Positions 1 to 46,098 of a stretch of 46,098 bases of DNA are shown one piece after another. This stretch comes from Staphylococcus phage CUB-EPI_14. A program made the position numbers and the translations under genes. The number at the start of each line of letters is the position of its first letter. The stretch's first letter is position 1. Below the pieces are notes generated by a model. The model saw only the letters and a list, made by a program, of their open reading frames with translations. It ran no database searches and was not told the DNA's origin. The DNA is taken from sequence record ON325435.2; one strand, written 5' to 3'.

Positions 1-534
1 ATGAGTGAAAATAAAACAGATGGACGAGTTACTAAAGGCAAGTATCATGACTGGATAACAGATGAAGGATTAAGGATTGTTGAAGGTTGGGCTAGAGACG
101 GATTAAGTAACAAACAGATAGCTCATAACATGGGTATTGATGAAGCAACGTATTATAAATGGCAGCATAAGTACGACAAGTTTAGAGAGGCAGTAAAGAA
201 AGGCAAAGAGGTTATCGACAGAGAGGTAGAGAACGCCCTACTCAAACGTGCATTAGGTTATGAAGCCGAAGAAACAAAGACATACTTTAAGAAGGGGAAG
301 AACGGAGAAGAAACCAAACATATCGAAAAGACAAAGAAACACATTGCAGCAGATACAACGTCTATGATCTTTTGGCTTAAGAATAGAAAGCCTGATGAGT
401 GGAATGATAGACGCGAGATCACACATACTGGATCTATAGACAGCAATGTTAAGATGTTTGAAACAGTAAGCACTGATGAATTGCGTGACATTGTAAGTGA
501 TGTTAAAGATATACTACGCGGCGACAATCAATAA
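1..534 (+). CDS. terS: terminase small subunit
   Basis: 177-aa ORF directly upstream of terL. The N-terminal region looks like an HTH, followed by a basic K/E-rich region typical of Staphylococcus-phage TerS. An SD-like AAGGGGG sits at the window end (46085-46091) if the sequence is circular. Confidence 0.7.
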   Translation: MSENKTDGRVTKGKYHDWITDEGLRIVEGWARDGLSNKQIAHNMGIDEATYYKWQHKYDKFREAVKKGKEVIDREVENALLKRALGYEAEETKTYFKKGKNGEETKHIEKTKKHIAADTTSMIFWLKNRKPDEWNDRREITHTGSIDSNVKMFETVSTDELRDIVSDVKDILRGDNQ

Positions 535-621: not shown

Positions 622-2007
622 ATGGTAAATAGTAAAGAAGTTATTTTAAAGCGAGCGCTATTCGAGTTGAGTAGGCGCTCGTATTTAGATTATGTGGAAC
701 AAGTGCATTACTATAAATACTTTCACATGAAGCATACAAGATACATAACAGATAGATTGCAACGAATAGCAGAGGGCGAGCAAAAGTATTTAATTGTTGA
801 GCTACCACCACGTCACAGTAAATCACAAACGATTACGGAGAGCTTTCCGTCATACTATTTAGGACTTAATCCACGTAATAGAGTAATAGCTACAGCATAC
901 AGTGACGGGCTGGCACGTAAGTTTGGTAGGCTTAACCGAAACAAATTAAAAGAGTTCGGCCAAGATATATTCGGCGTTGGATTGTCAGAGGATAATAGCA
1001 ACGCTAACAATTGGGATCTAGACAACGGTGTAGGTGGTATGGTGTCTACAGGTATTGGAGGATCTATAACTGGTATGGGTGCAGACTTATTAATTATAGA
1101 TGATCCAATCAAAAACAATGAAGAGGCACAATCACAAACCATGCGCGACAAAGTGTGGGACGAGTGGGAAACAACACTGTCAACACGATTACATAAAGGC
1201 GCAAGCGTCATCGTTGTTATGACACGTTGGCACGAAGATGACTTGGTAGGCCGATTGTTTGAACGTAGTCCATATAATTGGGAGCGTATAAGAATACCAG
1301 CAATAGCCGAAGATGATGACGACTTGTTAGGACGCGAGATAGGACAACCATTAGCGCCAGAGCTAGGATATGACAAAGAGTGGGCGGATCTTAAGAGTAA
1401 AGAAGTAGGAACAAAGACATGGCTTGCATTATACCAACAACGACCTACAGACAGTGAAGGGAATATATTCAACCGTAGTTGGTGGCAGTTCTATGATACA
1501 TTACCGAAATACTTTGATGAGCAAATACTCTCGTGGGACTTAACGTTCAAAGATAACAAAGACAATGACTATGTTGTAGGACAAGTGTGGGGACGTAGAC
1601 GTGCTAACTATTACTTAATAGATCAAGTGAGAGATCAAATGGATTTCCCTAATACGTTGGCGGCAGTGAGACAGTTATCTAGTCGTTATCCTATGGCAAG
1701 AATAAAACTCATAGAGGATAAGGCAAACGGTCCCGCAGTTATATCGACACTAAAAAAAGAGATAGCAGGTATCATACCGGTTAATCCTAAAGGTGGTAAG
1801 GTGTCTAGGGCGCAAGCAATCACACCATTCATTGAGAGTGGCAATGTATTTTTACCTAAGCACAAAGACTTCACATATGATTTAATAGAAGAGAGCGCAA
1901 GTTTTCCTAATGGGAAGCACGATGATATGGTGGATGCCATGAGCCAAGCGCTATCTCGTATGGCAACAAAACAAAGCGCTGGAATATCTAGCGTTAATAT
2001 TTGGTAG
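622..2007 (+). CDS. terL: terminase large subunit (ATPase + nuclease)
   Basis: 461-aa ORF. It has an ATPase region (LIIDDP Walker-B-like, VVMTRWHEDDL motif) and a C-terminal RNaseH-like nuclease region. Its position between terS and portal fits. Confidence 0.85.
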   Translation: MVNSKEVILKRALFELSRRSYLDYVEQVHYYKYFHMKHTRYITDRLQRIAEGEQKYLIVELPPRHSKSQTITESFPSYYLGLNPRNRVIATAYSDGLARKFGRLNRNKLKEFGQDIFGVGLSEDNSNANNWDLDNGVGGMVSTGIGGSITGMGADLLIIDDPIKNNEEAQSQTMRDKVWDEWETTLSTRLHKGASVIVVMTRWHEDDLVGRLFERSPYNWERIRIPAIAEDDDDLLGREIGQPLAPELGYDKEWADLKSKEVGTKTWLALYQQRPTDSEGNIFNRSWWQFYDTLPKYFDEQILSWDLTFKDNKDNDYVVGQVWGRRRANYYLIDQVRDQMDFPNTLAAVRQLSSRYPMARIKLIEDKANGPAVISTLKKEIAGIIPVNPKGGKVSRAQAITPFIESGNVFLPKHKDFTYDLIEESASFPNGKHDDMVDAMSQALSRMATKQSAGISSVNIW

Positions 2008-11319: not shown

Positions 11320-14300
11320 ATGGCAAGTGTAAAGGAGTTATACGCCAAGATAAGCGCTACAGCTGAAGGCTTTAACAAAACAATGGATAGCATATCACAA
11401 AAAACAAGACAGACAGCTAAGAGCATATCCAGTCAATCAGGCGTAATGAGTAAAAGCCTAGAAGGTATCGGTAAAGCTGGGCGTAGCTTTGACAACATAG
11501 GAAACAAAATACAAAATGTTTCTAAAAATGTTGGTGGCGTTGGCGAAAAAATGACTAACTCTATAACTAAGCCAGCAGGTATTGCAGCTGGTGCAGTTGG
11601 TGGACTTGTCGGTGCTTTAGGTTTCAAACGTCTTGTCGGAATGGATCAGGCAGAAGCTAAGTTAAAAGGTATCGGTCTTGCTGGTAAAGACGTTACAAAG
11701 ATACAAAACCAAGTATCTAAGTCTATCGAAGGTAGTATGACAACTATGGCCGAAGGTACTGACTTAGCAGCCGGTGCTTTAGGATCAGGTGTTAAAGAAG
11801 GAAAAGAATTAGAAAAATACATAAAAGCAGCAGGTAACGCTGCAGTAGGTGCTAATGTACCTGTATCTGAAATGGGACAAATATTCAGTCGTGTTAAAGG
11901 TCAGGGTAAATTGGCCGGAACTGAACTACAAATGATGGAAGAACGTTTGCCGGGCTTCACTTCTACTATGGCAAGAGAAATGGGCTTGTCTATGGAAGAA
12001 TTTAGAAACAAAGTTTCTGAAGGTGAGGTTGGATATGACGAGTTCTTAAAAGGGGTTGAAGCTAGAGCTGGTAAGTCGGCAGAGGCTCAATCTCAAACAT
12101 TTATGGGTATGCTTACCAACACTAAAAACTATTTAGGAATGATTGGAGAAGCATTTCTACAACCAGCATTTAAAGAGGCTAAAGTTGTATTGGCTGATCT
12201 CGTTAATACATTAAATAGTGACTCATTAAGACAAAGTGCTGCAGAAGCAGGGAAAGTAGTAGCGCCAGCGTTCGCTTTTCTAGCTAAAGCAGTCACAGGA
12301 ACAGTTAAGGCTTTCTTAAATCTACCCGGACCGGTGTTAGGTGCAATTGGTGCTTTAGGTGGTATATTAATTGCAATCGGTCCAGTGCTAACAGGTTTTG
12401 CTAAATTAGGTGGTATGATCGGAGGAATGTTCAAAACGTTCGGTTCATTACTATCATTCGTGTCAGCATTAAACCCAGTCGGACTAATTATCATGGGTAT
12501 CGTTGCGGCAGTCGCAGCATTAGGAACAGCTTTCTATATCGCCTATCAGAAATCAGAAACATTTAGAAACTTCATCAACGGTATAGGCACTATGATAAGT
12601 GGTGCTATTGGTTGGGTTAAACAATTCGGCCAAGCAATTGGCGCGCTTTTCTCAGGAAACACTGGAGAAGGCGTCAACATATTAGAAAAACTAGGATTTA
12701 ATCAAAGTCAAATATCAGCGATACAGGGTATGGTATCAAGTCTTAAAAGTATATTTACTGAATTAGGACGAGTGTTAGCGATAACATTTAATGAGATGAA
12801 AGGCGCTTGGAATGGAGTAGCTAGTGCATTCACTGGATCAATTCCATTTATTAAAATGGCGTTCTCTAACATGGTAGCAATACTAGGTCCGATATTTATG
12901 GCTTTAGTGAATGTTGTTAAGACAGTGTTCACAACTATAATTTCTGTCATTCGTGGCGCTTTCCAAATGATACAGGGCGTTATACAAATATTTAGCGGTC
13001 TTGTACAGGGCGACTGGTCGTTAGTATGGCAAGGCGTAGTAAATATATTCAAAGGTTTCTTTGGTATATTATTTGCCTTAGTTAAACAGCTTGTCATGAC
13101 GCTATTCTATATAGTTAAAGGATTGGCTACTAGTTTAGGTAATGCCTTACGCATTGCTTTTGGCGTCGTCAAAAATATCATCGTCGGTATTTTCAACGGT
13201 ATCAAGTGGGTAGTAGTTACAATATTTAAAGGCATGGTTAATGCTATCGTTGTCAGCGCACAAACATTGTGGTTGAGAATAACACAAATTTTTAATGCAC
13301 TTAAATTTGCTATTACAGCTATATGGAATGGAATTAAATTTGTTTCTGTAGCAGTATGGAATAGTATTAAGTTTTTAGTAGTTGGTTTCGTTCGAACTAT
13401 GAAAAATTTAATAATGATGATACTTGGCGGACTGAAAGCCGGTATATTGGCAATTTGGAACGGAATCAAGTTTGTCACAATGTTTGTTTGGAATTTAATT
13501 AAGAACAGAGTTATAGCCAATGCTCGTATCATGAAGAATTTAGTCGTTGCCATATTTAGAAGTTTAAAAGCTATCGTTTCTGCTATATGGAACGGACTTA
13601 AAAACTTTGTCATCTTAGTATGGAATGCATTAAAAAATAGAGTAATTGCAATTACTCGTATTTTGAAAAATATCGTAATTTCAGTAATACGAATAATGAA
13701 AAACATCGTCATTGCAACATTTAGAATAATGAAAAACATCATTATCGCAGTGTGGAACGCAGCTAAGAATAGAATTATCGCTGTTGCTCGTATCATGAAG
13801 AACATCGTTATTGCAGTTATTCGTACATTGAAGAATGTTGTTATTAGTATATTTAGAGCATTGAAAAATGTAGCAATTGCTATATGGAATGGAATTAAAA
13901 ACAAAGTAATCGCTTTAGCTCGAACAATGAAGAACGTTGCTATATCAATAATTCGAGCAATGAAAAACGCGATACTCGCAATTTGGAAAGCACTCAAAAA
14001 CGTAACGCTTTCAATTTGGAATGCAATTAAAAATAAAGTAATCGGATTAGCTCGCGCTTTGAAGAACACTGCACTTAGTGTGTTCCGATCATTGAAGTCA
14101 GGTATTACTGGAATATGGAATGCCATAAAATCTGTTACTTCTAAAGTTTGGAACGGAATTAAAAATGTAGCTATCGGCGCAGCTAAAGGAATGAAAAGTA
14201 AAGTCTTAGGTTTATTTGGATCCATGAAAAATGGAATCAAAAAACAAATTGATAACATCAAAGGCTTTATGGATAAAATGGTTGGCGGCGTTAAAAAAGG

Positions 14301-16152
14301 CCTTAATGGATTAATCAAAGGTGTTAACTGGGTAGCCGGCAAACTAGGTATGGACAAGCTACCAGAGATAAAACTACATAGCGGTACTGTGGGTGGTGGA
14401 CGTCTTGTAAGAAACGGAAAACTAAACACAGGCACAATGGCTACTGTAGGAGATAAAGGTCGAGGAAATGGACCGGGTGGCTTTAGAAATGAAATGATAC
14501 GCTATCCTAACGGAAGAATGGCACTAACACCTGATAAAGACACAACAACATTCTTGCCTAAAGGTTCAAGCGTATATAGCGGCGCGCAAACACATTCATT
14601 ATTGAGTAGCTTACCTAAGTTTTCTACTGGTACTAATCCATTAGGCAGTGGAAACAAAAAGCCTAAGAAAAAGAAAAAAGGCGACAACTTATTCGGCGAC
14701 GCGTGGGACGCAACCAAAGCTGGTGCCGCTAAAGTTGTTGACGGTGGTAAAGCCGTTGTTAGCAAAACACTCGACGCTGCCGCTAAAGGTAAAAAGTGGC
14801 TAGGCGATAAAGTCGGAGATGTGCTTGATTGGATAGATAAACCTGAAAAACTATTGGAAAAAGTTCTCGAAGGCTTTGGAGTGAACTTAGATAGCTTCGG
14901 AATAGGTAAAGCAGCAGAATTACCTTACAACATGATGAAAGGTATGTACGGAAAACTTAAAAAAGCTGCAATAGATAAATTTAAAGAATGGTTTGAAGAA
15001 AGTTCAGCAGGTGACGGTGGTTACATCGACCTTTCAAAAGGTATCAACTTTGGCTTTGCGCCTTCAGCAGCATCAGCAGCAGCGCAAGGTTATCCATTCG
15101 CTCGTCCGCACTATGGATTAGACATTAACTATAAATACGACAAAGTCTATTCAACGTTATCCGGTACTGCAACAGGTAGTTCCGGTTGGAATGGTGGTTT
15201 CGGTCAAAACATGTGGATAAGAGCTGGTAATGGCTTAGAAGCTATCTACGGACACCTTCACAAATTAGCTTTCAGCGGTAAAAAACGTGTCAAACCCGGT
15301 ACTTACTTAGGTATTTCCGGTGGGGATCCGGGACGCGATGGACAAAACGCCGGAAGTTCTACAGGTCCACACTTACACTATGAAATGAGAAGAAACGGTA
15401 AACCATTCGATCCGACAGGTTGGCTTAAAAAACACAACGGCGGTGGCAAAGTCGGTGGCAGTGGATCAGGAAACGCACGTAAGGCAATCAAGAAAGCACA
15501 AGCAATTTTAGGCGGTCGTTACAAATCATCTTATATTACTGAACAAATGATGAGAGTTGCCAAACGTGAATCCAACTTCCAAGCTGACGCAGTCAACGAC
15601 TGGGACGTCAATGCTAGAGCTGGAACACCTTCTAAAGGTATGTTCCAAATGATTGAACCATCTTTTAAAGCATATGCTAAAAAAGGACATGGGAACATAT
15701 TAAATCCAACTGACCAAGCTATATCAGCTATGCGCTACATTGTAGGTAAATGGGTTCCTATTATGGGAAGTTGGAAAAGTGCGTTTAAACGTGCAGGAGA
15801 TTATGCCTATGCTAACGGTGGTATTGTTAATTCGCCAGAGTTAGCATGGATTGCCGAAGGTGGTTTCAGTGAGTCTGTTATAAGTCATGACCCTAGAAAA
15901 CGTATGAGAAGTAAAAGCATACATGATAAAACAGGCAAAATGCTCGGTGTTGATGATGATACGCAAATGTTACGAGAAATCATTAATATTCTTGAAGCTG
16001 GCAACCACTTACAATCTGTTAATAATAACGCTGTTAATAGATTGTTAGATAAAAACGTCGACATCTATATGGATAAGAAAAAACTAACACAAGCGGTCAA
16101 CAATCAGTCAGCGGACTTATTCAATTCCGGTATGTATAATCAGGGAGGTTAA
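11320..16152 (+). CDS. tape measure protein with C-terminal M23 peptidase and lytic transglycosylase-like domains
   Basis: 1610-aa ORF. It contains about 25 tandem 11-residue repeats (IWNGIKNxVIA type). It has an M23 signature (GLDINYKYD...GPHLHYEMRRNGKPFDP) and an SLT-like segment (ESNFQADAVNDW...GMFQMIEPSF). Confidence 0.9.
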   Translation: MASVKELYAKISATAEGFNKTMDSISQKTRQTAKSISSQSGVMSKSLEGIGKAGRSFDNIGNKIQNVSKNVGGVGEKMTNSITKPAGIAAGAVGGLVGALGFKRLVGMDQAEAKLKGIGLAGKDVTKIQNQVSKSIEGSMTTMAEGTDLAAGALGSGVKEGKELEKYIKAAGNAAVGANVPVSEMGQIFSRVKGQGKLAGTELQMMEERLPGFTSTMAREMGLSMEEFRNKVSEGEVGYDEFLKGVEARAGKSAEAQSQTFMGMLTNTKNYLGMIGEAFLQPAFKEAKVVLADLVNTLNSDSLRQSAAEAGKVVAPAFAFLAKAVTGTVKAFLNLPGPVLGAIGALGGILIAIGPVLTGFAKLGGMIGGMFKTFGSLLSFVSALNPVGLIIMGIVAAVAALGTAFYIAYQKSETFRNFINGIGTMISGAIGWVKQFGQAIGALFSGNTGEGVNILEKLGFNQSQISAIQGMVSSLKSIFTELGRVLAITFNEMKGAWNGVASAFTGSIPFIKMAFSNMVAILGPIFMALVNVVKTVFTTIISVIRGAFQMIQGVIQIFSGLVQGDWSLVWQGVVNIFKGFFGILFALVKQLVMTLFYIVKGLATSLGNALRIAFGVVKNIIVGIFNGIKWVVVTIFKGMVNAIVVSAQTLWLRITQIFNALKFAITAIWNGIKFVSVAVWNSIKFLVVGFVRTMKNLIMMILGGLKAGILAIWNGIKFVTMFVWNLIKNRVIANARIMKNLVVAIFRSLKAIVSAIWNGLKNFVILVWNALKNRVIAITRILKNIVISVIRIMKNIVIATFRIMKNIIIAVWNAAKNRIIAVARIMKNIVIAVIRTLKNVVISIFRALKNVAIAIWNGIKNKVIALARTMKNVAISIIRAMKNAILAIWKALKNVTLSIWNAIKNKVIGLARALKNTALSVFRSLKSGITGIWNAIKSVTSKVWNGIKNVAIGAAKGMKSKVLGLFGSMKNGIKKQIDNIKGFMDKMVGGVKKGLNGLIKGVNWVAGKLGMDKLPEIKLHSGTVGGGRLVRNGKLNTGTMATVGDKGRGNGPGGFRNEMIRYPNGRMALTPDKDTTTFLPKGSSVYSGAQTHSLLSSLPKFSTGTNPLGSGNKKPKKKKKGDNLFGDAWDATKAGAAKVVDGGKAVVSKTLDAAAKGKKWLGDKVGDVLDWIDKPEKLLEKVLEGFGVNLDSFGIGKAAELPYNMMKGMYGKLKKAAIDKFKEWFEESSAGDGGYIDLSKGINFGFAPSAASAAAQGYPFARPHYGLDINYKYDKVYSTLSGTATGSSGWNGGFGQNMWIRAGNGLEAIYGHLHKLAFSGKKRVKPGTYLGISGGDPGRDGQNAGSSTGPHLHYEMRRNGKPFDPTGWLKKHNGGGKVGGSGSGNARKAIKKAQAILGGRYKSSYITEQMMRVAKRESNFQADAVNDWDVNARAGTPSKGMFQMIEPSFKAYAKKGHGNILNPTDQAISAMRYIVGKWVPIMGSWKSAFKRAGDYAYANGGIVNSPELAWIAEGGFSESVISHDPRKRMRSKSIHDKTGKMLGVDDDTQMLREIINILEAGNHLQSVNNNAVNRLLDKNVDIYMDKKKLTQAVNNQSADLFNSGMYNQGG
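13200..14180 (+). repeat. about 33-nt (11-codon) tandem repeat array inside the TMP gene
   Basis: The protein shows 11-aa periodicity with W/F/R at fixed positions (AIWNGIKNFVI LVWNALKNRVI AITRILKNIVI ...). This produces the spurious 442-aa minus-strand ORF 13107..14435. Confidence 0.8.
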
Positions 16153-16155
16153 CAA

Positions 16156-16998
16156 ATGGAGAGTTGTAAGAAAAGCTGGGTAGAAGTAATGTTCAAAAAT
16201 AAAACGTATAATCTAGCAAATATTGACGGTTTATACATACAAAACATATCAACTACACACCCAGTAGGAGAAAACGATCAAATAGAAATCAAGGGGGTTG
16301 ACGGTGTTATTCCAGCGCCGTCAACATATAAACCCTTCGAACTAGAAATAGAACTCATGTATAGAGGCGTAGACGCAAAAGACGTTGAGCTTTTAGTATT
16401 CAGACTTAATAACTTTTTAAGTGTAAGAGAGCCTTACTATATTAGACATTCGAACATGCCCGGACTTAAATATGCTGTATTGCCTAATCCTAAAATTGAA
16501 GATGAATATAAAACATTAAGAGATAGAACAATAAAAATAACTTTTAATTGTTATAAAGGTTATAGCGAAAGTTATGAAGCAACTAACAAGATGAATTTCA
16601 TCAATGACGATTGGCAATTCCAAGAAGGTTTAAAAGCAGCAGATAAACTAAAATATGTACATTATGATTGGGGTTATGAAATATATAATGGTTCAAGTGA
16701 CTACATAAACCCGTTTAACCAAAGTTTAACTATTAAATTGAACTTAGACGCCCCTAAAGGTTTTACATTACACAACAAGACAACAGGCGATAAATTTGAA
16801 TATTATGAACCATTAAAGATAAATGAAACGTTTGAATTGCGAGATGTTTATCCTATAAAAAACTATAGTGAGCATGTAGGACACTTAACTAATTTTGAAT
16901 GGATTACGTTAGCGCCCGGATATAATGATATAGAAATATATGGACGCGACTTAGGATATACAAAGAGTGAATGGATATTTAACTTCACATTCAAGTAG
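16156..16998 (+). CDS. distal tail protein (Dit)
   Basis: 280-aa ORF directly after the TMP gene, as in siphovirus baseplate modules. Confidence 0.55.
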   Translation: MESCKKSWVEVMFKNKTYNLANIDGLYIQNISTTHPVGENDQIEIKGVDGVIPAPSTYKPFELEIELMYRGVDAKDVELLVFRLNNFLSVREPYYIRHSNMPGLKYAVLPNPKIEDEYKTLRDRTIKITFNCYKGYSESYEATNKMNFINDDWQFQEGLKAADKLKYVHYDWGYEIYNGSSDYINPFNQSLTIKLNLDAPKGFTLHNKTTGDKFEYYEPLKINETFELRDVYPIKNYSEHVGHLTNFEWITLAPGYNDIEIYGRDLGYTKSEWIFNFTFK

Positions 16999-24753: not shown

Positions 24754-25191
24754 ATGAACAAATACTTTACACCGAACGATAAACTAGCTACCCTCTCTCT
24801 ATTTGGCTTAGGCACATATAATGGTGCTAGAGGCTTTTTTTGGGTACTAAGTCAAGAAGTGGTGGTACACGATAGCAAATTCTATGTTGCTTTAAATGAA
24901 TTCATGCCTATATGGATATGGGGCGTTATATTAATGATATTTGGCCTATGTTTAATACTCTCTAGTGTTTTATATAGTAGAACAGATATAAGCAACAAAT
25001 CATATTATTTAATGACAATTGGAGGGTTTGGTTGTGGGGTTATGCAATTTTTAATGGCTTCAGCCAGTTTATACAACGCTATAAACTGGTTGACGCCAAT
25101 AAACTTTACTATCTTAGCAGCGTGGTGTGGTTTTGTAGGCTATATAGGAGTGTTAGGAGTAAATGACAAACAACGATTTTCTAAAGATTAG
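24754..25191 (+). CDS. membrane protein with about four TM segments (possible holin-like or accessory lysis protein)
   Basis: Start chosen at the ATG downstream of the SD TAGGAGGGG. The track's upstream start at 24715 is less likely. The protein has four hydrophobic stretches. Confidence 0.45.
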   Translation: MNKYFTPNDKLATLSLFGLGTYNGARGFFWVLSQEVVVHDSKFYVALNEFMPIWIWGVILMIFGLCLILSSVLYSRTDISNKSYYLMTIGGFGCGVMQFLMASASLYNAINWLTPINFTILAAWCGFVGYIGVLGVNDKQRFSKD

Positions 25192-25561
25192 AGATTGGGA
25201 GTCGGAAAAAAGAGAAATACAAAAGCAAATAAACAAAGTTGACACAAAACACACCGAAAATTACAACAATTTGATTAACAGAATAGATGTACAAACAATT
25301 GTACAACGTAATACATATGAGTCGCAAAAGAAATCTGAAAAGCATTTAGAAAAAATAAGCGAAAACATTAGCAGTGTTGGTACTAGAGTTACAAAACTTG
25401 AATTTGCTAACGAAACAAATGAAAAAGAGATAAAGAAAATGCAAACAACATTGGAAGAAAAAAGCAAAGGCAACACAAATATTATTGTTGCTTGGATAGG
25501 TGTTGTTGGTGTATTACTACCTTCACTAATTCCTGTGTTTTCTAACTTATTTGATAAATAA
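25163..25561 (+). CDS. XhlA-like coiled-coil protein with C-terminal TM anchor
   Basis: 132-aa ORF with a charged coiled-coil body and a C-terminal hydrophobic segment (IIVAWIGVVGVLLPSLIPVF). It lies immediately upstream of the holin, as XhlA does in Bacillus PBSX-type lysis cassettes. Confidence 0.45.
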   Translation: MTNNDFLKIRDWESEKREIQKQINKVDTKHTENYNNLINRIDVQTIVQRNTYESQKKSEKHLEKISENISSVGTRVTKLEFANETNEKEIKKMQTTLEEKSKGNTNIIVAWIGVVGVLLPSLIPVFSNLFDK

Positions 25562-25579
25562 AATGGAGGTGTCGAGTTT

Positions 25580-25849
25580 ATGAAACCTGATGTAGGTACA
25601 ATAACTAGGGTTGTATTATTTATTTTAGCTTGGGTTAACCAAATACTAGCTAATTATAATTTATCCCCTATAGAAGCAAGCGAAGAAAATATCAGTGACA
25701 TTATCACTGGTGCGATTTCTGTTTGGGTATTATGGAAAAACAACAACTTTACACATGCTGCAAAAGAAGGACAACAAAAAATACACGAGGTCAAATCCGG
25801 AAATAACAAACATACAGGTTCGCCCGTTATTGATGAGGAGGATTTATAA
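25580..25849 (+). CDS. holin (SPP1/XhlB-like, phage_holin_1 type)
   Basis: 89-aa ORF with two TM segments. Residues 10-50 resemble the SPP1-type holin consensus (GTIxRxxLxxLAxVNQxL...). It is directly upstream of the endolysin gene. Confidence 0.7.
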
Positions 25850-27264
25850 TGACTTCAATAAGAACATATAAACAAGCGTCGAAGTATCTAAAGTATATGG
25901 AGGGCAAAGCATGGAATCCAGATAGAGCATATGGATTTCAGTGTTTTGATACAGCAAACCAATATTGGATGTACTTATTCGGACATATGTTAAAAGGCAT
26001 AGGCGCTGCAGATATTCCTACATGGAACAACTTCAAAGGAGAAGCAAAAGTCTATGAAAACACATTAGACTTTCTAGCTAAACGTGGAGATTTGGTTATA
26101 TTCAACAGAAATTACGGTGGCGGTTATGGACACGTCGGCATCGTTATAAAAGCGACACTAGATTACATAGTGGTCATAGAACAAAATTGGCTTGGCGGTG
26201 CTTATTGGACACCACCAGAAGTAACTACACGTCGCACACATGGCTATGATTTTCCTATGTTTTTTATACGCCCCTACTTTGCAAAAGAAACGAAAAAGAA
26301 CGCTGCTAAAAGTAAGCTAACACCTAAGAAAAAACCTAAAATGAACAAAGGTAAAAAGATATTACTTGTAGCCGGACATGGTAAAGGTGCTTATTCAAAC
26401 GATCCGGGTGCAGTAGCTAATGGATATAATGAGCGCGATTTCAACAGAAAAGAAGTTATACCTAGAGTTAAGAAATATCTTGAGAGTGTAGGTAACACTG
26501 TCGTTCTATATGGTGGTAAGAAAATGAACCAAGATTTATATCAAGACACGTTATACGGTCAAAGGGTAGGAAATTATAAAGATTACGGTTTATATTGGGT
26601 TAAAAACAATGTTAAACCTGACGCGATTGTAGAATTTCATCTCGACGCTGCAGGACCTCAAGCCAGTGGAGGTCATGTAATAGTAAGCGATAGATTTCCT
26701 GCCGATGATATAGACAAAGCGTTATCTAGCACATTAGACAAAACAGTTGGAAAAATAAGAGGTGTTACACCTAGAAATGATCTATTAAACGCAAATGTTA
26801 CTGGATCGTTAAACCTAAACTATAGATTAATAGAATTAGGTTTTATAACATCTAAAAAAGACATGAATTACATCACAGAAAATATTGACGACTTCACTAA
26901 AAGGATTGCCGAAGCGATTAATGGTAGACAAATCAATGCGCCTAAAAGTAAGCCTTCTAGTAAAAAGATAACTTGGAATTGGGGAGGTACTTTCTACCCT
27001 AATGCGCCTAAAGAAGGTATTAGAGTTAGAAGATCGCCCGGCTTAAATGGTGCTATTGTCGAAAGTGGTTCGTGGTTATACCGAAAAACAGATTGGGTTA
27101 AATTTGATAGAGTTATCAAAAAGGATGGATATTGGTTTATTAGGTTCAAGTATCAAGCGCCAGGTTCGAGTAACAAGCATTTTTATTGCGCAGTGTGCAA
27201 AATTACTGATAAGCAACAAAAAATCAAAAATGAGAAATACTGGGGAACTATAGAGTGGAAATGA
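25849..27264 (+). CDS. endolysin (CHAP + amidase + SH3b-like)
   Basis: 471-aa ORF. It has an N-terminal CHAP-like region ([10 protein letters not shown]...GHVGIV), a central amidase-like region ([19 protein letters not shown]) and a C-terminal SH3b-like region. A K-rich linker is present. Confidence 0.85.
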
Positions 27265-27344
27265 TTTACAAACAAAAATATTGGGTATATAATAATAACC
27301 ATAAAACTATTATTCATTTTTCCCACTTAATAAATTTAACTTAG

Positions 27345-27373
27345 CCACGTCGTAATAGACGTGGTTATTTTTA
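27345..27373 (+). terminator. rho-independent terminator after the endolysin gene
   Basis: Perfect 7-bp stem CCACGTC/GACGTGG with a 6-nt loop, then TTATTTTTAT. Confidence 0.75.
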
Positions 27374-27452
27374 TGTGATACTATTAATTACGTAACCTAA
27401 AAGGTTATTAATTTAATTGTCCCTTTTAATTTGATACTATATTATATATTAC

Positions 27453-27490
27453 GACAAACGATATCCCCCTCTCGTTTGTCTTTTTTTATT
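27453..27490 (+). terminator. second rho-independent terminator (end of the late operon)
   Basis: Perfect 8-bp stem GACAAACG/CGTTTGTC with a 12-nt loop, then T9. Confidence 0.75.
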
Positions 27491-27496
27491 TTAATG

Positions 27497-27525
27497 TTTA
27501 CATTCTTAAATACTAATGCTATAAT
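27497..27525 (+). promoter_or_regulatory. consensus sigma-A promoter for the early region
   Basis: TTTACA (27497-27502), a 17-nt spacer, then TATAAT (27520-27525). An SD and ATG at 27556 follow. Confidence 0.7.
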
Positions 27526-27555
27526 TAGTATGTAATATTTAAGGAGGGAAACAAA

Positions 27556-27732
27556 ATGAAAAATAGTACAAAAAGTTTTATAACTTCTGAATTAGTATTC
27601 GTTGTAATGAGTATATTGTTGATGAGATTGTTTTATTTCACAACAGCGATAGGGTTATCAATTTTTATTAGTGCAGCGTTTTATTTATTTTTTGTAAGTT
27701 ATGTATTCGATAAGGAGGATGAAAAATGTTAG
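27556..27732 (+). CDS. small membrane protein (58 aa), first early gene
   Basis: Unlisted ORF with the SD AAGGAGGG. It has two hydrophobic segments. Confidence 0.45.
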   Translation: MKNSTKSFITSELVFVVMSILLMRLFYFTTAIGLSIFISAAFYLFFVSYVFDKEDEKC

Positions 27733-27971
27733 AAACAGTTAAATATATTTTAGAGATCATAGAGGAACACGAAATAGATTTTTACTACACAGCAGACTAT
27801 GACGTTATATACGAAAATGGCGTTACATCTTTTACATTCTCAACATATAGCGATGATTTAACAACTTTAAGAGATATAGTCAGAATTACATCTTTAGAAA
27901 GTAAAGATGTTAAAGAAAAGAAAGTGAATAGAATTTATGAAATTATAACAAACGGATATAAGGGGTTTTGA
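27726..27971 (+). CDS. hypothetical protein
   Basis: 81-aa ORF with an SD (AAGGAGGA). Confidence 0.45.
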   Translation: MLETVKYILEIIEEHEIDFYYTADYDVIYENGVTSFTFSTYSDDLTTLRDIVRITSLESKDVKEKKVNRIYEIITNGYKGF

Positions 27972-27973
27972 TA

Positions 27974-28459
27974 ATGAGCAATATATATGAGCTAAAAGAA
28001 AGTTACAAACAAGTTTTTGACGCTATATCAAATGGAGAAGAAGATCAGGTTTATTTAGATACACTACAATCAATTAATGACACTATAGAAGATAAAGCAG
28101 ACAACTACATGAGAGTAATTAAAAATTTAGAGGGCGATAATGAAGCGTTAGACAAAGAAATTAAACGACTTCAAGCAAGAAAGAAAACAAATGCAAATGG
28201 TATAAAACGTATGAAAGAAAGTCTACAACTGGCAATGGAGGAAACAAACAAACTCGCATTTAAAACTTCATTATTCAGTTACGGTATACAAAACAATGCG
28301 CCTTCATTGGATAATTTAGACATGGGAAAAATACCTAAAAAATACTTTGTAGAACAAGAGCCAAAACTAGACAAGAAAGCATTGTTACAAGACATCAAAG
28401 ATGGTGTAGATGTTGACGGTGCAGAATTGAAAGTCACAAGATCATTAAGAGTAAGATAA
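27974..28459 (+). CDS. hypothetical coiled-coil early protein
   Basis: ORF with an ATG start downstream of AAGGGG. It precedes the recombinase gene. Confidence 0.45.
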   Translation: MSNIYELKESYKQVFDAISNGEEDQVYLDTLQSINDTIEDKADNYMRVIKNLEGDNEALDKEIKRLQARKKTNANGIKRMKESLQLAMEETNKLAFKTSLFSYGIQNNAPSLDNLDMGKIPKKYFVEQEPKLDKKALLQDIKDGVDVDGAELKVTRSLRVR

Positions 28460-30306: not shown

Positions 30307-30333
30307 TATTTTAGATTTTAAGGAGGAATGATT

Positions 30334-34583: not shown

Positions 34584-34775
34584 ATGTACTTTTACGATGA
34601 AGAGGAAATGCGAAACCGTTTGAAAGAAAAAGGTTTGAGCATTAGAGAATTAAGCAAACGAGTTGATTTGCCATACAATACAGTTTACGCGATATTCAAA
34701 GGTCAAAGTAACATCGACGGAGTAAGATTGAGAGTTTACAAAAAGATAGTAAATGAATTGTGGAAAGGAGAGTAA
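34584..34775 (+). CDS. XRE/Cro-like HTH protein
   Basis: 63-aa ORF with an HTH-like stretch (LSIRELSKRVDLPYNTVYAIFKG). It is downstream of the operator-like promoter. Confidence 0.5.
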   Translation: MYFYDEEEMRNRLKEKGLSIRELSKRVDLPYNTVYAIFKGQSNIDGVRLRVYKKIVNELWKGE

Positions 34776-36628: not shown

Positions 36629-38434
36629 ATGAATTTTATTGATATTTGTAGCGGTATTGGTGGTTTTCGTACTGCTTTAGAAAACAACGGACATCAATGT
36701 TTAGCGTTTGCTGAAATAGATAAATTCGCTAAACAAAGTTACAAAGCTATATATGATACAAGTCAAGAGGAGGAGTTAGACGATGTTACAGCAGTCACAG
36801 ATGAACATTTTCGAATTTACAGAGGAGAAGTCGACATCATCACAGGAGGTTTCCCGTGTCAAACCTTTAGTATTGCAGGGAAACGTAGAGGGTTTGAAGA
36901 TACAAGAGGAACAATATTCTTTCACATTGCTAGGGCGATTAAAGAGATCCAACCATCTTATGTTTTACTGGAAAACGTCAAAGGGTTACTCTCACACGAC
37001 AAAGGGAGAACTTACGGAACAATCATTCAAACGTTGGATGAATTGGGGTATATCGTCGAATGGGGCGTGTTTAACAGCAAATACTGGGGAGTTCCGCAAA
37101 ATAGAGAACGAGTATACATCTTAGTAACTCGAAAAGATATTTTTAAAACCCCTAAATTATTTAAATTATTAAAGAAGCAAACTACAGTCGACACTCGTTT
37201 AGTTGACATCTTAGAGAAAGACGTAGACGAAAGGTACTATTTATCTGAAGAAAAGACAAGAAAGTTAACGTTGAATGAAGATTTAAGCGGTAGATTAAAC
37301 CAATATGATTTCGCCGAGAGAGATCGTATACACAGTGTAAACAAAGTAAGTCCTACTCTTAACACTATGCAGGGAGGAGATAGGCAACCGAAAGTCGCAA
37401 TAATTGGCAATACATCTAAAACTCATCATAATGCACATAACATTCATGATGTGAGAGGGTTAAGTCCTACAATTCAAGCACGAGATTATAAGGGTGCGAA
37501 ACAAATAGCGATACCAGTTTTAACACCTGATAGAGTGAACAAAGAACAAAATGGCAGAAGGTTTAAAGATAACAACGAATCGATGTTCACTTTAACAAGC
37601 CAAGATAAACACGGTGTTTTAATAAAAGAAGCTACTAAAAAAGGGTATACAGTGGCTAAATTAGGAGATAGCGTGAACACGTCTTATCCTGATAGTAAAA
37701 CTAGAAGAGGTCGTGTAGGTAAACAAGTTGCGCAAACTTTACAAGCAGGAGATGTTAATCAGGGTGTGATTATAGGAGGAGATTTTAATGCCAAGAAAAT
37801 TGAAAAAGACACCTTTGAAATATTGCAAACATTGCAAAAAGAAATTGGAGAGAAAGAGGTTGCCAAATGGAGATCTCGAATACTTGATTCATTTCAACAA
37901 GAGGAAATATTGCAACAAGATATGTATGAGAAGGGATTGGATATTGAACAAAACGAAAAGAAACTCGAACGAAACCAACAGTCGCACGAATGCGAGGTTA
38001 AGAATACAACTTTTGACAAACAAGAGAGAATGCGAGAAATGCCAATCAACAAAGAATTTAGATGTTCATCACATGGACGAGAATCCATTCAACAATTCAC
38101 TAGAGAACTTACAAGTATTATGCAGAAGTTGTCATACGAAACATCACAGGAAAAGAACTTGTACTATCTGCGAGAAACCACACAAGGGATTAGGTTATTG
38201 CAACAAGCATTATATAAGATTCAAGAAGTATGGGAATCCTTGCTACACAAAAAAACAAGTGTCAGAATAAGAAAACTTACCGAAAAAGAATGCTGGCGAC
38301 TTCAGGGCTTTACAGATGAGCAATTTTACAAAGCAAAAAATGACGGCGTAAGTAAATCGCAATTATATAAACAAGCAGGAAATGCGGTTACTGTAAATGT
38401 AGTAGACGCTATAGTTAGAGAGATAAAAAATTAA
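36629..38434 (+). CDS. DNA (cytosine-5) methyltransferase with an about 160-codon insertion
   Basis: Motifs: I FIDICSGIGGFR, IV GGFPCQTFS, VI ENVKGL, VIII QNRERVYIL, a target-recognition region (MFTLTSQDKHGV), IX RKLTEKECWRLQGF, X YKQAGNAVTV. The frame is open across the nested HNH gene. Confidence 0.8.
   Translation: MNFIDICSGIGGFRTALENNGHQCLAFAEIDKFAKQSYKAIYDTSQEEELDDVTAVTDEHFRIYRGEVDIITGGFPCQTFSIAGKRRGFEDTRGTIFFHIARAIKEIQPSYVLLENVKGLLSHDKGRTYGTIIQTLDELGYIVEWGVFNSKYWGVPQNRERVYILVTRKDIFKTPKLFKLLKKQTTVDTRLVDILEKDVDERYYLSEEKTRKLTLNEDLSGRLNQYDFAERDRIHSVNKVSPTLNTMQGGDRQPKVAIIGNTSKTHHNAHNIHDVRGLSPTIQARDYKGAKQIAIPVLTPDRVNKEQNGRRFKDNNESMFTLTSQDKHGVLIKEATKKGYTVAKLGDSVNTSYPDSKTRRGRVGKQVAQTLQAGDVNQGVIIGGDFNAKKIEKDTFEILQTLQKEIGEKEVAKWRSRILDSFQQEEILQQDMYEKGLDIEQNEKKLERNQQSHECEVKNTTFDKQERMREMPINKEFRCSSHGRESIQQFTRELTSIMQKLSYETSQEKNLYYLRETTQGIRLLQQALYKIQEVWESLLHKKTSVRIRKLTEKECWRLQGFTDEQFYKAKNDGVSKSQLYKQAGNAVTVNVVDAIVREIKN
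37788..38270 (+). CDS. HNH endonuclease nested (+1 frame) inside the methyltransferase gene
   Basis: It has its own SD AGGAGGA (37774-37780) and a frame-opening TAG at 37773-37775. It has CxxC/CxxC zinc knuckles and an HH...N...H core (CEKCQSTKNLDVHHMDENPFNNSLENLQVLCRSCHTKHH). Its stop overlaps the first codons of MTase motif IX. Confidence 0.7.
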   Translation: MPRKLKKTPLKYCKHCKKKLERKRLPNGDLEYLIHFNKRKYCNKICMRRDWILNKTKRNSNETNSRTNARLRIQLLTNKRECEKCQSTKNLDVHHMDENPFNNSLENLQVLCRSCHTKHHRKRTCTICEKPHKGLGYCNKHYIRFKKYGNPCYTKKQVSE

Positions 38435-41770: not shown

Positions 41771-42103
41771 ATGATAGTTTATTTACCGCATTACGATAAC
41801 GGGGAAGATTATAGTGATTATTCACATAACGTGAGTACCAAAGCATATGTCAGATTAGAAGATGCTATTCAAGAGATAAAAGATAATGGCTTTATTATTA
41901 GAGAAGATAAGGATGCAAGTAGCATAGTAAGTACTGGTTATATAGGGGGAGATGTAGATGATAAGATCTTACCTTTTGCTTTTTACTCAATCAGTTTAGA
42001 AGAATATAAAAACAGGTTCAAATATAGTTATTTTCCTGACGATAGTAGGGAATTTGCTTATATTAACGAAATAGAATTAGTGGAGGGAGAAACTGATGCT
42101 TAA
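41771..42103 (+). CDS. hypothetical protein
   Basis: 110-aa ORF with the SD TTAGGAGTG. Confidence 0.4.
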   Translation: MIVYLPHYDNGEDYSDYSHNVSTKAYVRLEDAIQEIKDNGFIIREDKDASSIVSTGYIGGDVDDKILPFAFYSISLEEYKNRFKYSYFPDDSREFAYINEIELVEGETDA

Positions 42104-42254
42104 ACGTATATTAAAGATTTGGTTTATTATTATGATGTATGAAGTTGGTAAACTATTAGGCAGGGAGTTGTATTACTACTTAACAGCCAATGATGATATT
42201 GAAGCGCCAAACGACTTTAATGAAGAAGATCACATACATTTAAACGATTTATAA
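42096..42254 (+). CDS. small hydrophobic protein (52 aa)
   Basis: Unlisted ORF. It overlaps the previous stop and has an N-terminal TM-like segment. Confidence 0.3.
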   Translation: MLKRILKIWFIIMMYEVGKLLGRELYYYLTANDDIEAPNDFNEEDHIHLNDL

Positions 42255-43061: not shown

Positions 43062-43200
43062 TTGACTATGAAACATATATGTATTATATTTATTATAGCA
43101 ATTATATATTGCTAATGATTTAATCCTTTGTTTACCTTTTTCTTGTAATTTGTAATTTGATTTTCTCATTATCATTTCTGACTGCATGACTTACTTAGTA

Positions 43201-43232
43201 CGCCGGCTATTTTAGTCGGTGTATTTTTTTGT
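43201..43232 (+). terminator. rho-independent terminator
   Basis: 9-bp stem (two G-U pairs) CGCCGGCUA-UUU-UAGUCGGUG followed by UAUUUUUUUG. Confidence 0.55.
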
Positions 43233-43358
43233 CTAATTTTAATAATGAATAAAACATAACTCGTGTTTATCTTGTATATATATTGTTATATTTTCGTGCA
43301 TATCTCGTTCGTATTGTGTTATAATAGAGTATAAGCAAAAACAGAAAGTAGGGAAGAT

Positions 43359-43523
43359 ATGAAAGGAGCGTACGATGTACACGAAGTCGCAGATTTTTTA
43401 GAAATAAGTGTTCAGTCAGTGAGAAAATACATCAAAGAAGGAAAGCTCAAAGCTGTATTGATCGCAAACAAACACGTTATATCGGAACGTAATTATCAAA
43501 AGTTTATTGACGGAGATTGGTAG
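43359..43523 (+). CDS. small HTH DNA-binding protein (excisionase/MerR-like fold)
   Basis: Unlisted 54-aa ORF with an HTH-like stretch (HEVADFLEISVQSVRKYIKEGKL). It lies downstream of an extended -10 (TGTTATAAT, 43317-43325). Confidence 0.45.
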   Translation: MKGAYDVHEVADFLEISVQSVRKYIKEGKLKAVLIANKHVISERNYQKFIDGDW

Positions 43524-44445: not shown

Positions 44446-45945
44446 ATGGAAATTATAAACAAAAGTATATATGACATTATAGATTATGATGACAACCCTA
44501 GATACAACGATGAAGCAATAGACTATGTGAAAGAAAGTATTAAAGAATTTGGTTTTAAAGTACCGATTATCATTGATGAAAATGATGTGATCATAGCAGG
44601 ACATACAAGAAAGAAAGCGGCACTCGAGATAGGCATTAAAGAAGTGCCAGTTATTGTTGCCGATGATCTTACGCCGCAACAAGTTGACGCATTTAGATTG
44701 GCCGACAATAAAGTTGCTGAATTTAGTGAGTGGGACGAAGATTTATTGATGAGTGAACTCAATAAACTAGAAGATTTAGATATGAGTGCGTTTGGCTTTG
44801 ATGATATGGAGTTAGATTTAGAAGATACAGAAATCGAAGAAGAAGAGATTGAAGAAGATGAAGTGGTAGAAATACCGGAAGAACCTAAGTCTAAAATCGG
44901 TCAAATATATCAACTCGGCAATCACAGGCTCATGTGTGGCGATAGTACAAGCGATGAAGATGTTAGCAAGCTAATGAACGGACAACAGGCATCGTTAGTG
45001 TTCACTGATCCACCTTATGGCGCTAAGAAACAAAAAGACGGTGTACTCAATGACAATCTTAACTATGACAGCTTATTAGAATTTAATAAGTTATGGATAC
45101 CACTATCATTTAAATATTTAAAAGAGAATGGCAGTTGGTATTGTTGGGGATTAGATCAACCGCTTATGGATATTTACACAGAGATATTAAAACCTAAGAT
45201 CAAGAACGACGAGATTGTATTTAAAAACTTAATCACATGGGATAAAGGATCAGGACAGGGGCAAAACCAAGAAGGTCGAACGCAATATGCAACAGCAGAT
45301 GAGAAGTGTTTGTTTGTTGCTGGAGATATAGACAGTATGCGTAATAATTTCTATGAAGGTTATCGGCCTATATTAAACGCATTAAAAGAACAAGCCGAAA
45401 AAGTAGGATTAGGATCTAAGAAGTACAAAAAGATCATAGGAACACAGATGTATAGTCATTACTTCTCGGACTCTCAATTCTCACTAATACCACGAGAAGT
45501 ATTTGCTAAGTTAAAGAAACACTACGGAGAAGCATGGGAATTAACATGGGAAGAATTAAGTCGTATGATAAACAAAGCTACACCCGGCCATAATGATTAT
45601 GTAGAAGAACACAGAATGAAGAGGTCATACTTCAATAACACACATGATAATATGAATAACGTATGGCACATTAACAGAATAGTATCAGGCACAGAAGAGT
45701 ATAGAGACAAAGGCCAACACGTTACACCTAAACCATTAGCCCTATGTAGTCGAGGCATTAAATCAAGTTCTAAAGAACAAGAAATAGTTCTCGATTTATT
45801 CGGAGGCAGTGGTAGTGTACTTATATCTAGTGAGTTAGAAAATAGAACATGCTATACAATGGAATACCAACCTCAATATGTGGATGCAATCATAGAAAGA
45901 TGGGAAAGACGCACAGGTAGAAAGGCGGAGTTACTGAATGGATAA
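44446..45945 (+). CDS. ParB-like nuclease domain fused to N6-adenine/N4-cytosine DNA methyltransferase
   Basis: The N-terminus is ParB/Srx-like (DYDDNPR...IAGHTRKKAALEIG). It has an acidic linker and an MTase with DPPY (FTDPPYG) followed later by the AdoMet motif LDLFGGSGS (beta-class order). Confidence 0.8.
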   Translation: MEIINKSIYDIIDYDDNPRYNDEAIDYVKESIKEFGFKVPIIIDENDVIIAGHTRKKAALEIGIKEVPVIVADDLTPQQVDAFRLADNKVAEFSEWDEDLLMSELNKLEDLDMSAFGFDDMELDLEDTEIEEEEIEEDEVVEIPEEPKSKIGQIYQLGNHRLMCGDSTSDEDVSKLMNGQQASLVFTDPPYGAKKQKDGVLNDNLNYDSLLEFNKLWIPLSFKYLKENGSWYCWGLDQPLMDIYTEILKPKIKNDEIVFKNLITWDKGSGQGQNQEGRTQYATADEKCLFVAGDIDSMRNNFYEGYRPILNALKEQAEKVGLGSKKYKKIIGTQMYSHYFSDSQFSLIPREVFAKLKKHYGEAWELTWEELSRMINKATPGHNDYVEEHRMKRSYFNNTHDNMNNVWHINRIVSGTEEYRDKGQHVTPKPLALCSRGIKSSSKEQEIVLDLFGGSGSVLISSELENRTCYTMEYQPQYVDAIIERWERRTGRKAELLNG

Positions 45946-46098
45946 ACAAGAGGTATTAAACGTGCTTAAGAGATTAAGATCACAGTGTATATTGACTAAG
46001 CAAGAGTACAGAACAATCAAAGGACAAACAAACAATGGAGATGTAGAGGCAGCATTTAAAGGATTGAAACGATTATTAAGACGTAAGGGGGTACAAGT
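45938..46098 (+). CDS. small basic protein upstream of terS (incomplete at window end)
   Basis: Unlisted ORF whose ATG overlaps the ParB-MTase stop (AATGGATAA). If the window is circular it terminates at TGA formed by the window's positions 2-4, overlapping the terS ATG. Confidence 0.4.
   Translation, partial: MDKQEVLNVLKRLRSQCILTKQEYRTIKGQTNNGDVEAAFKGLKRLLRRKGVQ

Follow-up and report, generated by a model that had tools for sequence, protein, structure and literature searches.

Related phages and the CUB-EPI_14 record

SPP1 and P22 are the type cases of siphovirus-style pac packaging with circularly permuted, terminally redundant DNA, and P1 and N15 are the type cases of plasmid prophages. 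We compared both kinds of system with Staphylococcus phage CUB-EPI_14 (sequence record ON325435.2), whose genome sequence of 46,098 bp, with a GC content of 35.019 %, is the window analysed here. Our main interest was the junction between the two ends of this window, where a 54-codon gene (orf54) meets terS, the gene for the small terminase subunit, and the place in the genome where a lysogeny module would be expected. We conclude that the window is very probably the whole genome of a siphovirus, presented as a linear record that was opened arbitrarily at the terS ATG, and that the apparent closure of the window on itself is an effect of that opening.

CUB-EPI_14, a phage of S. epidermidis, was described by Fanaei Pirlar et al. 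(Viruses 2022, PMC9230115), who chose the terminase arbitrarily as the start of the record. They reported a GC content of 35.02 %, placed all genes on a single strand and found neither tRNAs nor lysogeny genes; a pac site was predicted with PhageTerm, and their comparison of terminases puts the CUB-EPI_14 terL (large terminase subunit) gene among those of headful packagers. Four sister phages belong to the same genus, namely Lacachita (OP142323), Sazerac (ON550478), Southeast (OQ623150) and S-CoN_Ph27 (OR354850). They are 93-97 % identical in nucleotide sequence over 73-100 % of the query stretch, and share with CUB-EPI_14 both the order of the genes and the overlaps between a DNA methyltransferase gene, orf54 and terS. 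With Lacachita as their example, Andrews et al. (PMC10286716) claimed that the genus is temperate and plasmid-like, on grounds that include proteins annotated as ‘ParB’ and ‘resistance protein’. Closure and the absence of lysogeny genes are thus both already known, the latter having been reported three times, and closure, as a bookkeeping effect of where the record was opened, has little discovery value.

The two ends of the record are contiguous in relatives

The first base of the record is the A of the terS ATG, and the last open reading frame (ORF) runs to the final base. The initial annotation of this DNA, made from the sequence alone, had taken this arrangement to mean that the window closes on itself and represents a complete, circular genome of about 46.1 kb. 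A 600-nt junction probe, consisting of the last 300 and the first 300 bases of the window, matches S-CoN_Ph27 internally, without gaps, over 600/600 positions (96.2 %), and matches Lacachita near the end of its record, again over 600/600 positions and without gaps (89.8 %). The match to the window end stops at position 16,874 of S-CoN_Ph27, and terS begins there at 16,875. In Sazerac, terS (071) begins at 45,820, before the end of gene 070 at 45,823, so that the two overlap by 4 nt, and in Lacachita a coding sequence (CDS) for 54 amino acids (45704..45868) likewise overlaps terS (45865..46398) by 4 nt.

The records of these relatives were opened at other places: that of S-CoN_Ph27 at the equivalent of window position ~27,324, in the spacer between the lysin and the early genes, and those of Sazerac, Lacachita and Southeast at ~610, just before terL. 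Since the window bridges the ends of these records, and they bridge the ends of the window, the map is circular. Independent assemblies agree with this result. Contigs with an identical TerS include 10 independent assemblies; assemblies from metagenomes and read archives show the order methyltransferase-orf54-terS, and the join recurs in independent contigs with lengths of 45.7-46.8 kb. The claim of a complete, circular genome of about 46.1 kb is therefore borne out. The opposite case, non-contiguous ends, was also examined, and the ends are contiguous in records with no fewer than three different opening points.

Alternatively, the window ends could be real physical ends, of the cos or direct-terminal-repeat type, or the assembly could be incomplete, and genes such as one for an integrase could then lie beyond the ends. 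Nothing in the sequence speaks for this reading, and a linear record could not by itself demonstrate it. If the ends were physical, however, orf54 would have no stop codon and the ribosome-binding site of terS would be located at the other end of the molecule. Together with the contiguity of the join in relatives and genome-length contigs, and with the pac prediction made by PhageTerm for CUB-EPI_14 (PMC9230115), this makes physical ends or missing genes so improbable that the idea can practically be set aside. As the window can be treated as a complete genome, no integrase can hide outside it.

The overlap of orf54 and terS at the junction

orf54 is located on the + strand at 45938..46098 and is completed by window bases 1-4; it encodes 54 amino acids (MDKQEVLNVLKRLRSQCILTKQEYRTIKGQTNNGDVEAAFKGLKRLLRRKGVQV). 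From its ATG (45,938-45,940), the 161 nt to position 46,098 make up 53 codons and a remaining GT, to which bases 1-4 add GTA and TGA. The TGA (window bases 2-4) overlaps the terS ATG in a 4-nt ATGA. The record was opened at terS, so the stop codon of the overlapping orf54 was split in two. At its other end, the orf54 ATG overlaps the upstream gene, which encodes the 499-aa methyltransferase (stop codon at 45,943-45,945), by 8 nt. A Shine-Dalgarno sequence for terS, AAGGGGG (46085..46091, + strand), lies inside orf54, 7 nt before the terS ATG. The initial annotation had proposed a final ORF from 45,938 to the last base, closed by an ATGA overlap with terS, as well as this Shine-Dalgarno sequence and its position. 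All these coordinates are correct, and the translation continues across the join.

To compare orf54 among relatives, we used a gap-free alignment of the window with 12 relatives (9 distinct sequences). None of the 13 sequences departs from the reading frame that starts with the ATG, from the ATGA overlap or from the Shine-Dalgarno sequence. Variation occurs at 27 sites, 21 of which fall at codon position 3, and the changes comprise 22 synonymous ones and 5 conservative replacements (R/K, V/I, N/D). Judged by this pattern of substitution, orf54 is under purifying selection. The alignment also bears on where the gene begins. The Sazerac annotation uses a GTG at the equivalent of position 45,962, but 7 of the 12 relatives have an isoleucine codon there, whereas the ATG at 45,938 is conserved, and the ATG is therefore the better start. 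Furthermore, orf54 is called as a 54-aa gene in 9 of the 10 independent contigs with an identical TerS, with the same overlaps of 4 nt with terS and 8 nt with the methyltransferase gene.

The protein has few detectable connections. Among 5.8 billion proteins, the only homologues found were those of its own 90 % cluster, and searches of PHROGs and Pfam yielded no family. An AlphaFold2 model, built from the 96 %-identical representative of the orf54 cluster, is a three-helix bundle with a pLDDT (predicted local distance difference test) of 90, for which Foldseek found no match better than E = 0.3 in the PDB or BFVD. The absence of homologues outside the genus, of a PHROG or Pfam family and of a matching fold could suggest that the 54-codon frame arose by chance within a terS leader that does not code for protein, and that the ATGA overlap is coincidental; the annotation of S-CoN_Ph27 indeed omits the gene. 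However, a chance ORF would not be expected to combine an intact frame in all 13 sequences with changes concentrated at third codon positions, a confidently predicted three-helix structure and detection by gene callers in nearly all of the contigs. Moreover, orf54 overlaps its neighbours at both ends, so no leader is left over. We therefore regard a chance ORF as very unlikely.

Overlaps of this kind are typical of the genome, where the ATGA-type overlap of 4 nt occurs five times and an overlap of 1 nt six times. At the junction, the upstream gene contains the Shine-Dalgarno sequence and its stop codon overlaps the downstream start codon, as in a translationally coupled pair, and both properties are invariant in the 13 sequences. 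Ribosomes that terminate at the orf54 TGA would re-initiate at the overlapping terS ATG, aided by the AAGGGGG sequence. The arrangement suggests that the ATGA of orf54 and terS reflects ordinary translational coupling within a late operon.

Terminase genes and packaging

The terS gene (1..534, + strand) encodes a 177-aa protein that matches phrog_309 (E 6e-60) and has an N-terminal helix-turn-helix (HTH) of the HTH_Tnp_1/HTH_28 type; its counterparts in Lacachita and S-CoN_Ph27 are annotated as terS. It is followed by terL (622..2007, + strand), whose 461-aa product matches the Pfam families Terminase_6N (E 4.9e-23) and Terminase_6C (E 5.1e-18) as well as TIGR01630. In sequence searches against solved structures, TerL had no match and TerS gave only noise. 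With regard to the packaging class, our own analysis provides the Terminase_6N/6C assignment only, and the assignment to a clade is that of PMC9230115.

Relatives of the phage have been found to assemble as circles (PMC13064016). CUB-EPI_14 is reported to be a headful (pac) packager, a classification that we take from PMC9230115 and from the circular assemblies of relatives (PMC13064016). Under headful packaging, concatemers would be packaged into virions as DNA that is linear, permuted and terminally redundant, and that would assemble as a circle. The window ends are thus not physical ends of the DNA, and ‘circular’ refers to the map only.

This picture resembles headful siphoviruses of the SPP1/P22 type in several respects. 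terS adjoins terL, TerL is of the Terminase_6 type, the genome assembles as a circle, PhageTerm predicts pac and, in a sister phage, a plasmid is transduced. In contrast to these phages, the TerL and TerS proteins of CUB-EPI_14 have no detectable sequence similarity to any solved terminase.

Absence of a lysogeny module

The initial annotation had also pointed out that the region between the endolysin gene, with its two terminators, and the early promoter contains neither an integrase nor a repressor gene, although temperate staphylococcal phages keep such genes there. We scanned every + strand ORF of at least 35 aa, and the four antisense ORFs of at least 121 aa, with Pfam profile hidden Markov models (HMMs), and found no Phage_integrase (PF00589), Resolvase (PF00239), Recombinase (PF07508), rve or Peptidase_S24 domain. 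The search of all ORFs for tyrosine and serine recombinases that the annotation had called for thus found none. Nor is there room for an integrase gene in non-coding DNA, in which the longest gap is 297 bp. Coding in one direction and the absence of an integrase and of a CI-type repressor are confirmed by the HMM scans, in agreement with three papers, and the two terminators and the early promoter after the endolysin gene were found as annotated.

We compared the early region with that of StB12 (NC_020490, Azeredovirinae), a temperate phage of S. hominis. The early genes of CUB-EPI_14 encode, in order, DUF1270, an 81-aa ORF, a Gp157/Gam-like protein, ERF, HNHc_6/DUF968, a replisome organiser and DnaB, and StB12 is collinear for Gp157, ERF, SSB, DUF968/HNHc, replisome organiser and DnaB, its Gp157 being 58 % identical to that of CUB-EPI_14. 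RinB, genes of the dUTPase region and lysis genes are likewise shared with staphylococcal temperate siphoviruses. In StB12, however, a minus-strand serine integrase, CI (HTH_3 and S24), Cro and several other genes fill 5.6 kb ahead of Gp157. At the corresponding place in CUB-EPI_14, there is a 291-bp spacer with terminators and a promoter, followed by two small ORFs, and nothing on the minus strand.

This absence extends beyond the one genome. In the 20 independent contigs listed, the lysin gene is followed by a gap of ~291 nt and then by DUF1270, with nothing inserted. As the same spacing recurs in 20 contigs, the lack of a lysogeny module is a property of the whole genus and not a deletion private to CUB-EPI_14. 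The suggestion in the initial annotation that the phage might have lost its lysogeny module is thus right in that the module is absent, but does not hold as a loss by this phage in particular.

One gene in the middle of the early region encodes a Cro-like HTH_3 protein of 63 aa (34584..34775, + strand). A Peptidase_S24 domain is missing from this protein, and its gene is not accompanied by a divergent partner.

The proteins annotated as ParB and resistance protein

The gene that ends the linear record before orf54 (44446..45945, + strand) corresponds to the ‘ParB’ of Lacachita, to which its 499-aa product is 95.992 % identical over 499 aa. Pfam assigns residues 16-73 to ParB_N and residues 183-483 to N6_N4_Mtase, that is, a fusion of a ParB N-terminal domain and an N6/N4 DNA methyltransferase. 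The protein matches the DNA methyltransferase family phrog_498 from end to end (E 3.6e-112). Against the partition protein profile TIGR00180 (parB_part), it scores 41.9 bits, below the cut-off of 58.45, and the match comprises the N-terminal part only (profile positions 23-116 of 186). We found no ParA ATPase in the window, and no full-length ParB with N-terminal domain, HTH and dimerisation domain.

The ‘resistance protein’ of Lacachita corresponds to a protein of the Sipho_Gp157 family, which is similar to Mu Gam (27968..28459, + strand; Pfam E 6.4e-44; phrog_253 Gam-like E 9.5e-53) and which heads the recombination/replication module. The two proteins are identical at 134/161 positions (83.23 %), or at 133/160 if the initial methionine is left out. 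This value and the 95.992 % of the methyltransferase equal those given for CUB-EPI_14 in Table 3 of PMC10286716; the window thus agrees with that phage in both identities as well as in length, GC content and record start, and no difference between them was detected. The mechanically predicted ORF starts with a TTG at 27,968; the ATG at 27,974 (MSNIYEL...) matches the Lacachita start and gives the published length of 161 aa. On the basis of these domain assignments, the Lacachita ‘ParB’ is a methyltransferase fusion, and the ‘resistance protein’ is a Gp157/Gam-like protein encoded beside ERF.

In the annotation of S-CoN_Ph27 (OR354850.1, 3448-4777), the ParB_N-methyltransferase gene appears as three CDSs, and a minus-strand ORF is placed over orf54. 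This record probably contains indel errors or gene calls that are too fragmented.

Lifestyle of the genus

We consider that CUB-EPI_14 is probably a non-integrating phage that is most likely obligately lytic, that transduces and that enters at most a transient carrier state. That the phage is a virulent siphovirus, as the initial annotation had proposed, is the default reading of a sequence with no integrase and no CI-type repressor, but whether Lacachita, a sister phage, has this lifestyle is disputed (PMC10286716). In that study, Lacachita was found to transduce a plasmid. Its plaques were intermittently turbid, plating efficiency was 100-fold lower on transductants, PhageAI called the phage ‘temperate’ at above 99.95 %, and a 46,658-bp contig of the genus was present in the S. 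epidermidis isolate assembly Sep_B35_CVC_2019 (PMC10286716). Apart from transduction itself, which is considered below, these observations weigh against an obligately lytic lifestyle. Two observations of our own do so as well. Small HTH proteins of unassigned role are encoded at 30,328, 34,584 and 43,359. In addition, exact copies of the DUF1270 protein and of the 81-aa ORF product are encoded on one contig in the 50-200 kb range; the other contigs are at most 50 kb long. This contig may represent either a permuted genome assembled as a tandem dimer or an element that is integrated or hybrid.

Such findings could suggest that CUB-EPI_14 is a temperate phage whose prophage is extrachromosomal and plasmid-like, with the ParB-like protein serving in segregation and an unrecognised repressor conferring immunity. 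A ParB_N domain is indeed present in the methyltransferase, the small HTH proteins offer candidates for a repressor, and other S. epidermidis siphoviruses, of the StB20-like group, sit in PLSDB as ‘plasmids’ of 41 kb. The likeness to plasmid prophages of the P1 and N15 type, however, is limited to the lack of an integrase and to the one protein with a ParB N-terminal domain. CUB-EPI_14 differs from them in having no ParA, no full ParB and no recognised immunity repressor, and no plasmid of the genus is in PLSDB. The ‘ParB’ is a full-length methyltransferase that fails the TIGR00180 cut-off, and the ‘resistance protein’ is Gam-like and located next to ERF, an arrangement that occurs in many phages. 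Moreover, all genes are co-oriented, and there is neither an S24 repressor nor a divergent promoter pair. With regard to the experiments, the presence of the phage in the transductants with reduced plating was never demonstrated. Transduction of a plasmid would be expected from headful packaging, so lysogeny is not needed to explain it. Taking both sides together, a temperate, plasmid-like CUB-EPI_14 appears unlikely.

Database searches provide further information on where the genus is found. Our search of PLSDB for plasmids of the genus yielded only a 378-bp match, in the tape-measure gene, to StB20-like ‘plasmids’. TerL was not found in the genomes that represent Staphylococcus species, its best matches being 64 % identical proteins of prophages in Planomicrobium and Sporolactobacillus. 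The contigs with an identical terS make up 30 blocks, including 13 in the 20-50 kb range, and none is longer than 50 kb; most contigs of the genus are metagenomic and genome-length. The S. epidermidis ‘plasmids’ of ~41 kb in PLSDB (CP100386.1, NZ_CP121501.1, NZ_CP121504.1 and NZ_CP121492.1) match only segment 15,437-15,814 of the window. In length and in this match they resemble StB20-like phage genomes, so a different group of siphoviruses may have been deposited as extrachromosomal replicons from skin isolates.

Transcriptional organization

In total, 95.5 % of the window is covered by + strand ORFs. Both GC skew and AT skew are above zero in each of the 23 two-kilobase bins, and 59 % of the bases on the + strand are purines. 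The 72 CDSs of Lacachita are co-oriented, as are all genes called on the 30 contigs listed. No tRNAs were found in the window. Several antisense ORFs (205, 121, 129 and 442 aa) lie inside terL or the tape-measure gene, and we rejected them as genes on composition and nesting. Counts by codon position are uninformative for these antisense frames, which share their wobble position with the sense gene. A Pfam search with these four largest antisense ORFs found no significant family, the lone match being that of the 205-aa ORF to DUF7798, below the cut-off (E 0.0036); this ORF is broken in Lacachita. The 442-aa ORF (13107-14435, minus strand, within the tape-measure gene) is open in Lacachita too, and no family matched it. 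A purine-rich sense strand, together with the shared wobble phase, accounts for this ORF better than a gene would. Given the coverage, the uniform skew and the lack of significant families among antisense ORFs, the statement of the initial annotation that all credible genes are on the + strand stands.

Only two non-coding gaps exceed 130 bp, namely 27,265-27,555 (291 bp) and 43,062-43,358 (297 bp). The first follows the last late gene, which encodes an endolysin of 471 aa with CHAP, Amidase_3 and SH3b domains (25849..27264, + strand). Two predicted terminators on the + strand come after the lysis genes. Terminator 1 (27342..27377) consists of a 10-bp hairpin at 27,342-27,367 (-16.2 kcal/mol, z -4.8) and a T run, and terminator 2 (27453..27490) of a 9-bp hairpin at 27,453-27,480 (-10.7 kcal/mol, z -6.2) and T7. 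Two terminators are annotated at the same place in Lacachita. Next is the predicted early promoter (27497..27525, + strand), which is TG-extended and has the form TTTACA-17-(TG)TATAAT. It is followed by a Shine-Dalgarno sequence, AAGGAGG, and by the first early gene, which encodes the 58-aa DUF1270 protein (27556..27732, + strand), 291 nt after the endolysin stop codon. A second near-consensus promoter (TTTACA-17-TATAAT, 11/12) is located directly 3′ of the endolysin stop codon (27265-27377), with terminator 1 ~50 nt further on. It could yield an RNA of ~70 nt or be a chance match. In the Lacachita annotation, the promoters and terminators after the endolysin gene have the same order.

The second gap contains a predicted terminator (43197..43225, + strand) and then an extended -10 element, TGTTATAAT, at about 43,319-43,327. 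The first gene after the gap (43359..43523, + strand) encodes a 54-aa DNA-binding protein of the HTH_17 type, which has a MerR/excisionase-like fold. Its Pfam match is below the cut-off (E 1.3e-5), it matches the DNA-binding family phrog_6401 (E 9e-7) and, weakly, excisionase PHROGs, and it scores 18.4 bits against TIGR01764, with a cut-off of 28.8. No partner integrase accompanies it. The 297-bp gap and this protein probably represent the start of the late operon and its regulator. The extended -10 element near 43,320 is the probable start of this operon, which we infer to run through the record junction. The late operon would then start at the promoter near 43,320 and end at the two terminators after the endolysin gene. 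RinB has a homologue at 42,096-42,254, and RinA was not detected.

Variation among the sister phages

The endolysin gene of Lacachita and Southeast is interrupted by a group I intron that contains an ORF for a homing endonuclease, whereas that of CUB-EPI_14 is intact (471 aa). In Lacachita, Southeast and many metagenome relatives (25185-27605 in one of these genomes), the gene consists of two exons, of 38 aa and of 425-431 aa, and the intron contains a 227-aa ORF of the AP2/HNH type. Rfam, at gathering thresholds, had 0 matches in the window, so there is no group I intron in CUB-EPI_14.

A second site of variation is the 3′ end of terL. In some relatives, TerL has 451 aa, and an additional 228-aa ORF (with a faint match to HTH_28) and ~260 nt follow before the portal gene. 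In CUB-EPI_14, the 461-aa terL abuts the portal gene (622-2018). The insertion in the relatives looks like a mobile element, either a homing endonuclease or an intron.

Finally, CUB-EPI_14 has an additional gene for a C5 cytosine DNA methylase of 601 aa (36,629-38,434), whose Pfam match is split into two stretches. At this position, Lacachita and most metagenome relatives have an 80-aa ORF instead of the methylase. The methylase appears to be a strain-specific cargo gene with a role in anti-restriction.

Implications for the genus

A further scenario would be that the genus persists in S. epidermidis as a heritable episome even though it has no integrase, ParA, full ParB or CI-type repressor, by a mechanism of maintenance and immunity that has not been described so far. 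We regard this scenario as quite improbable. If it were true, a role could perhaps fall to the methyltransferase with the ParB_N domain or to a small HTH protein, and the record junction would still be ordinary. As for the two proteins on which the temperate assignment partly relies, ‘ParB’ and ‘resistance protein’ fail the tests for those functions, a result that bears on the dispute over whether phages of this genus are safe for use in therapy against S. epidermidis.

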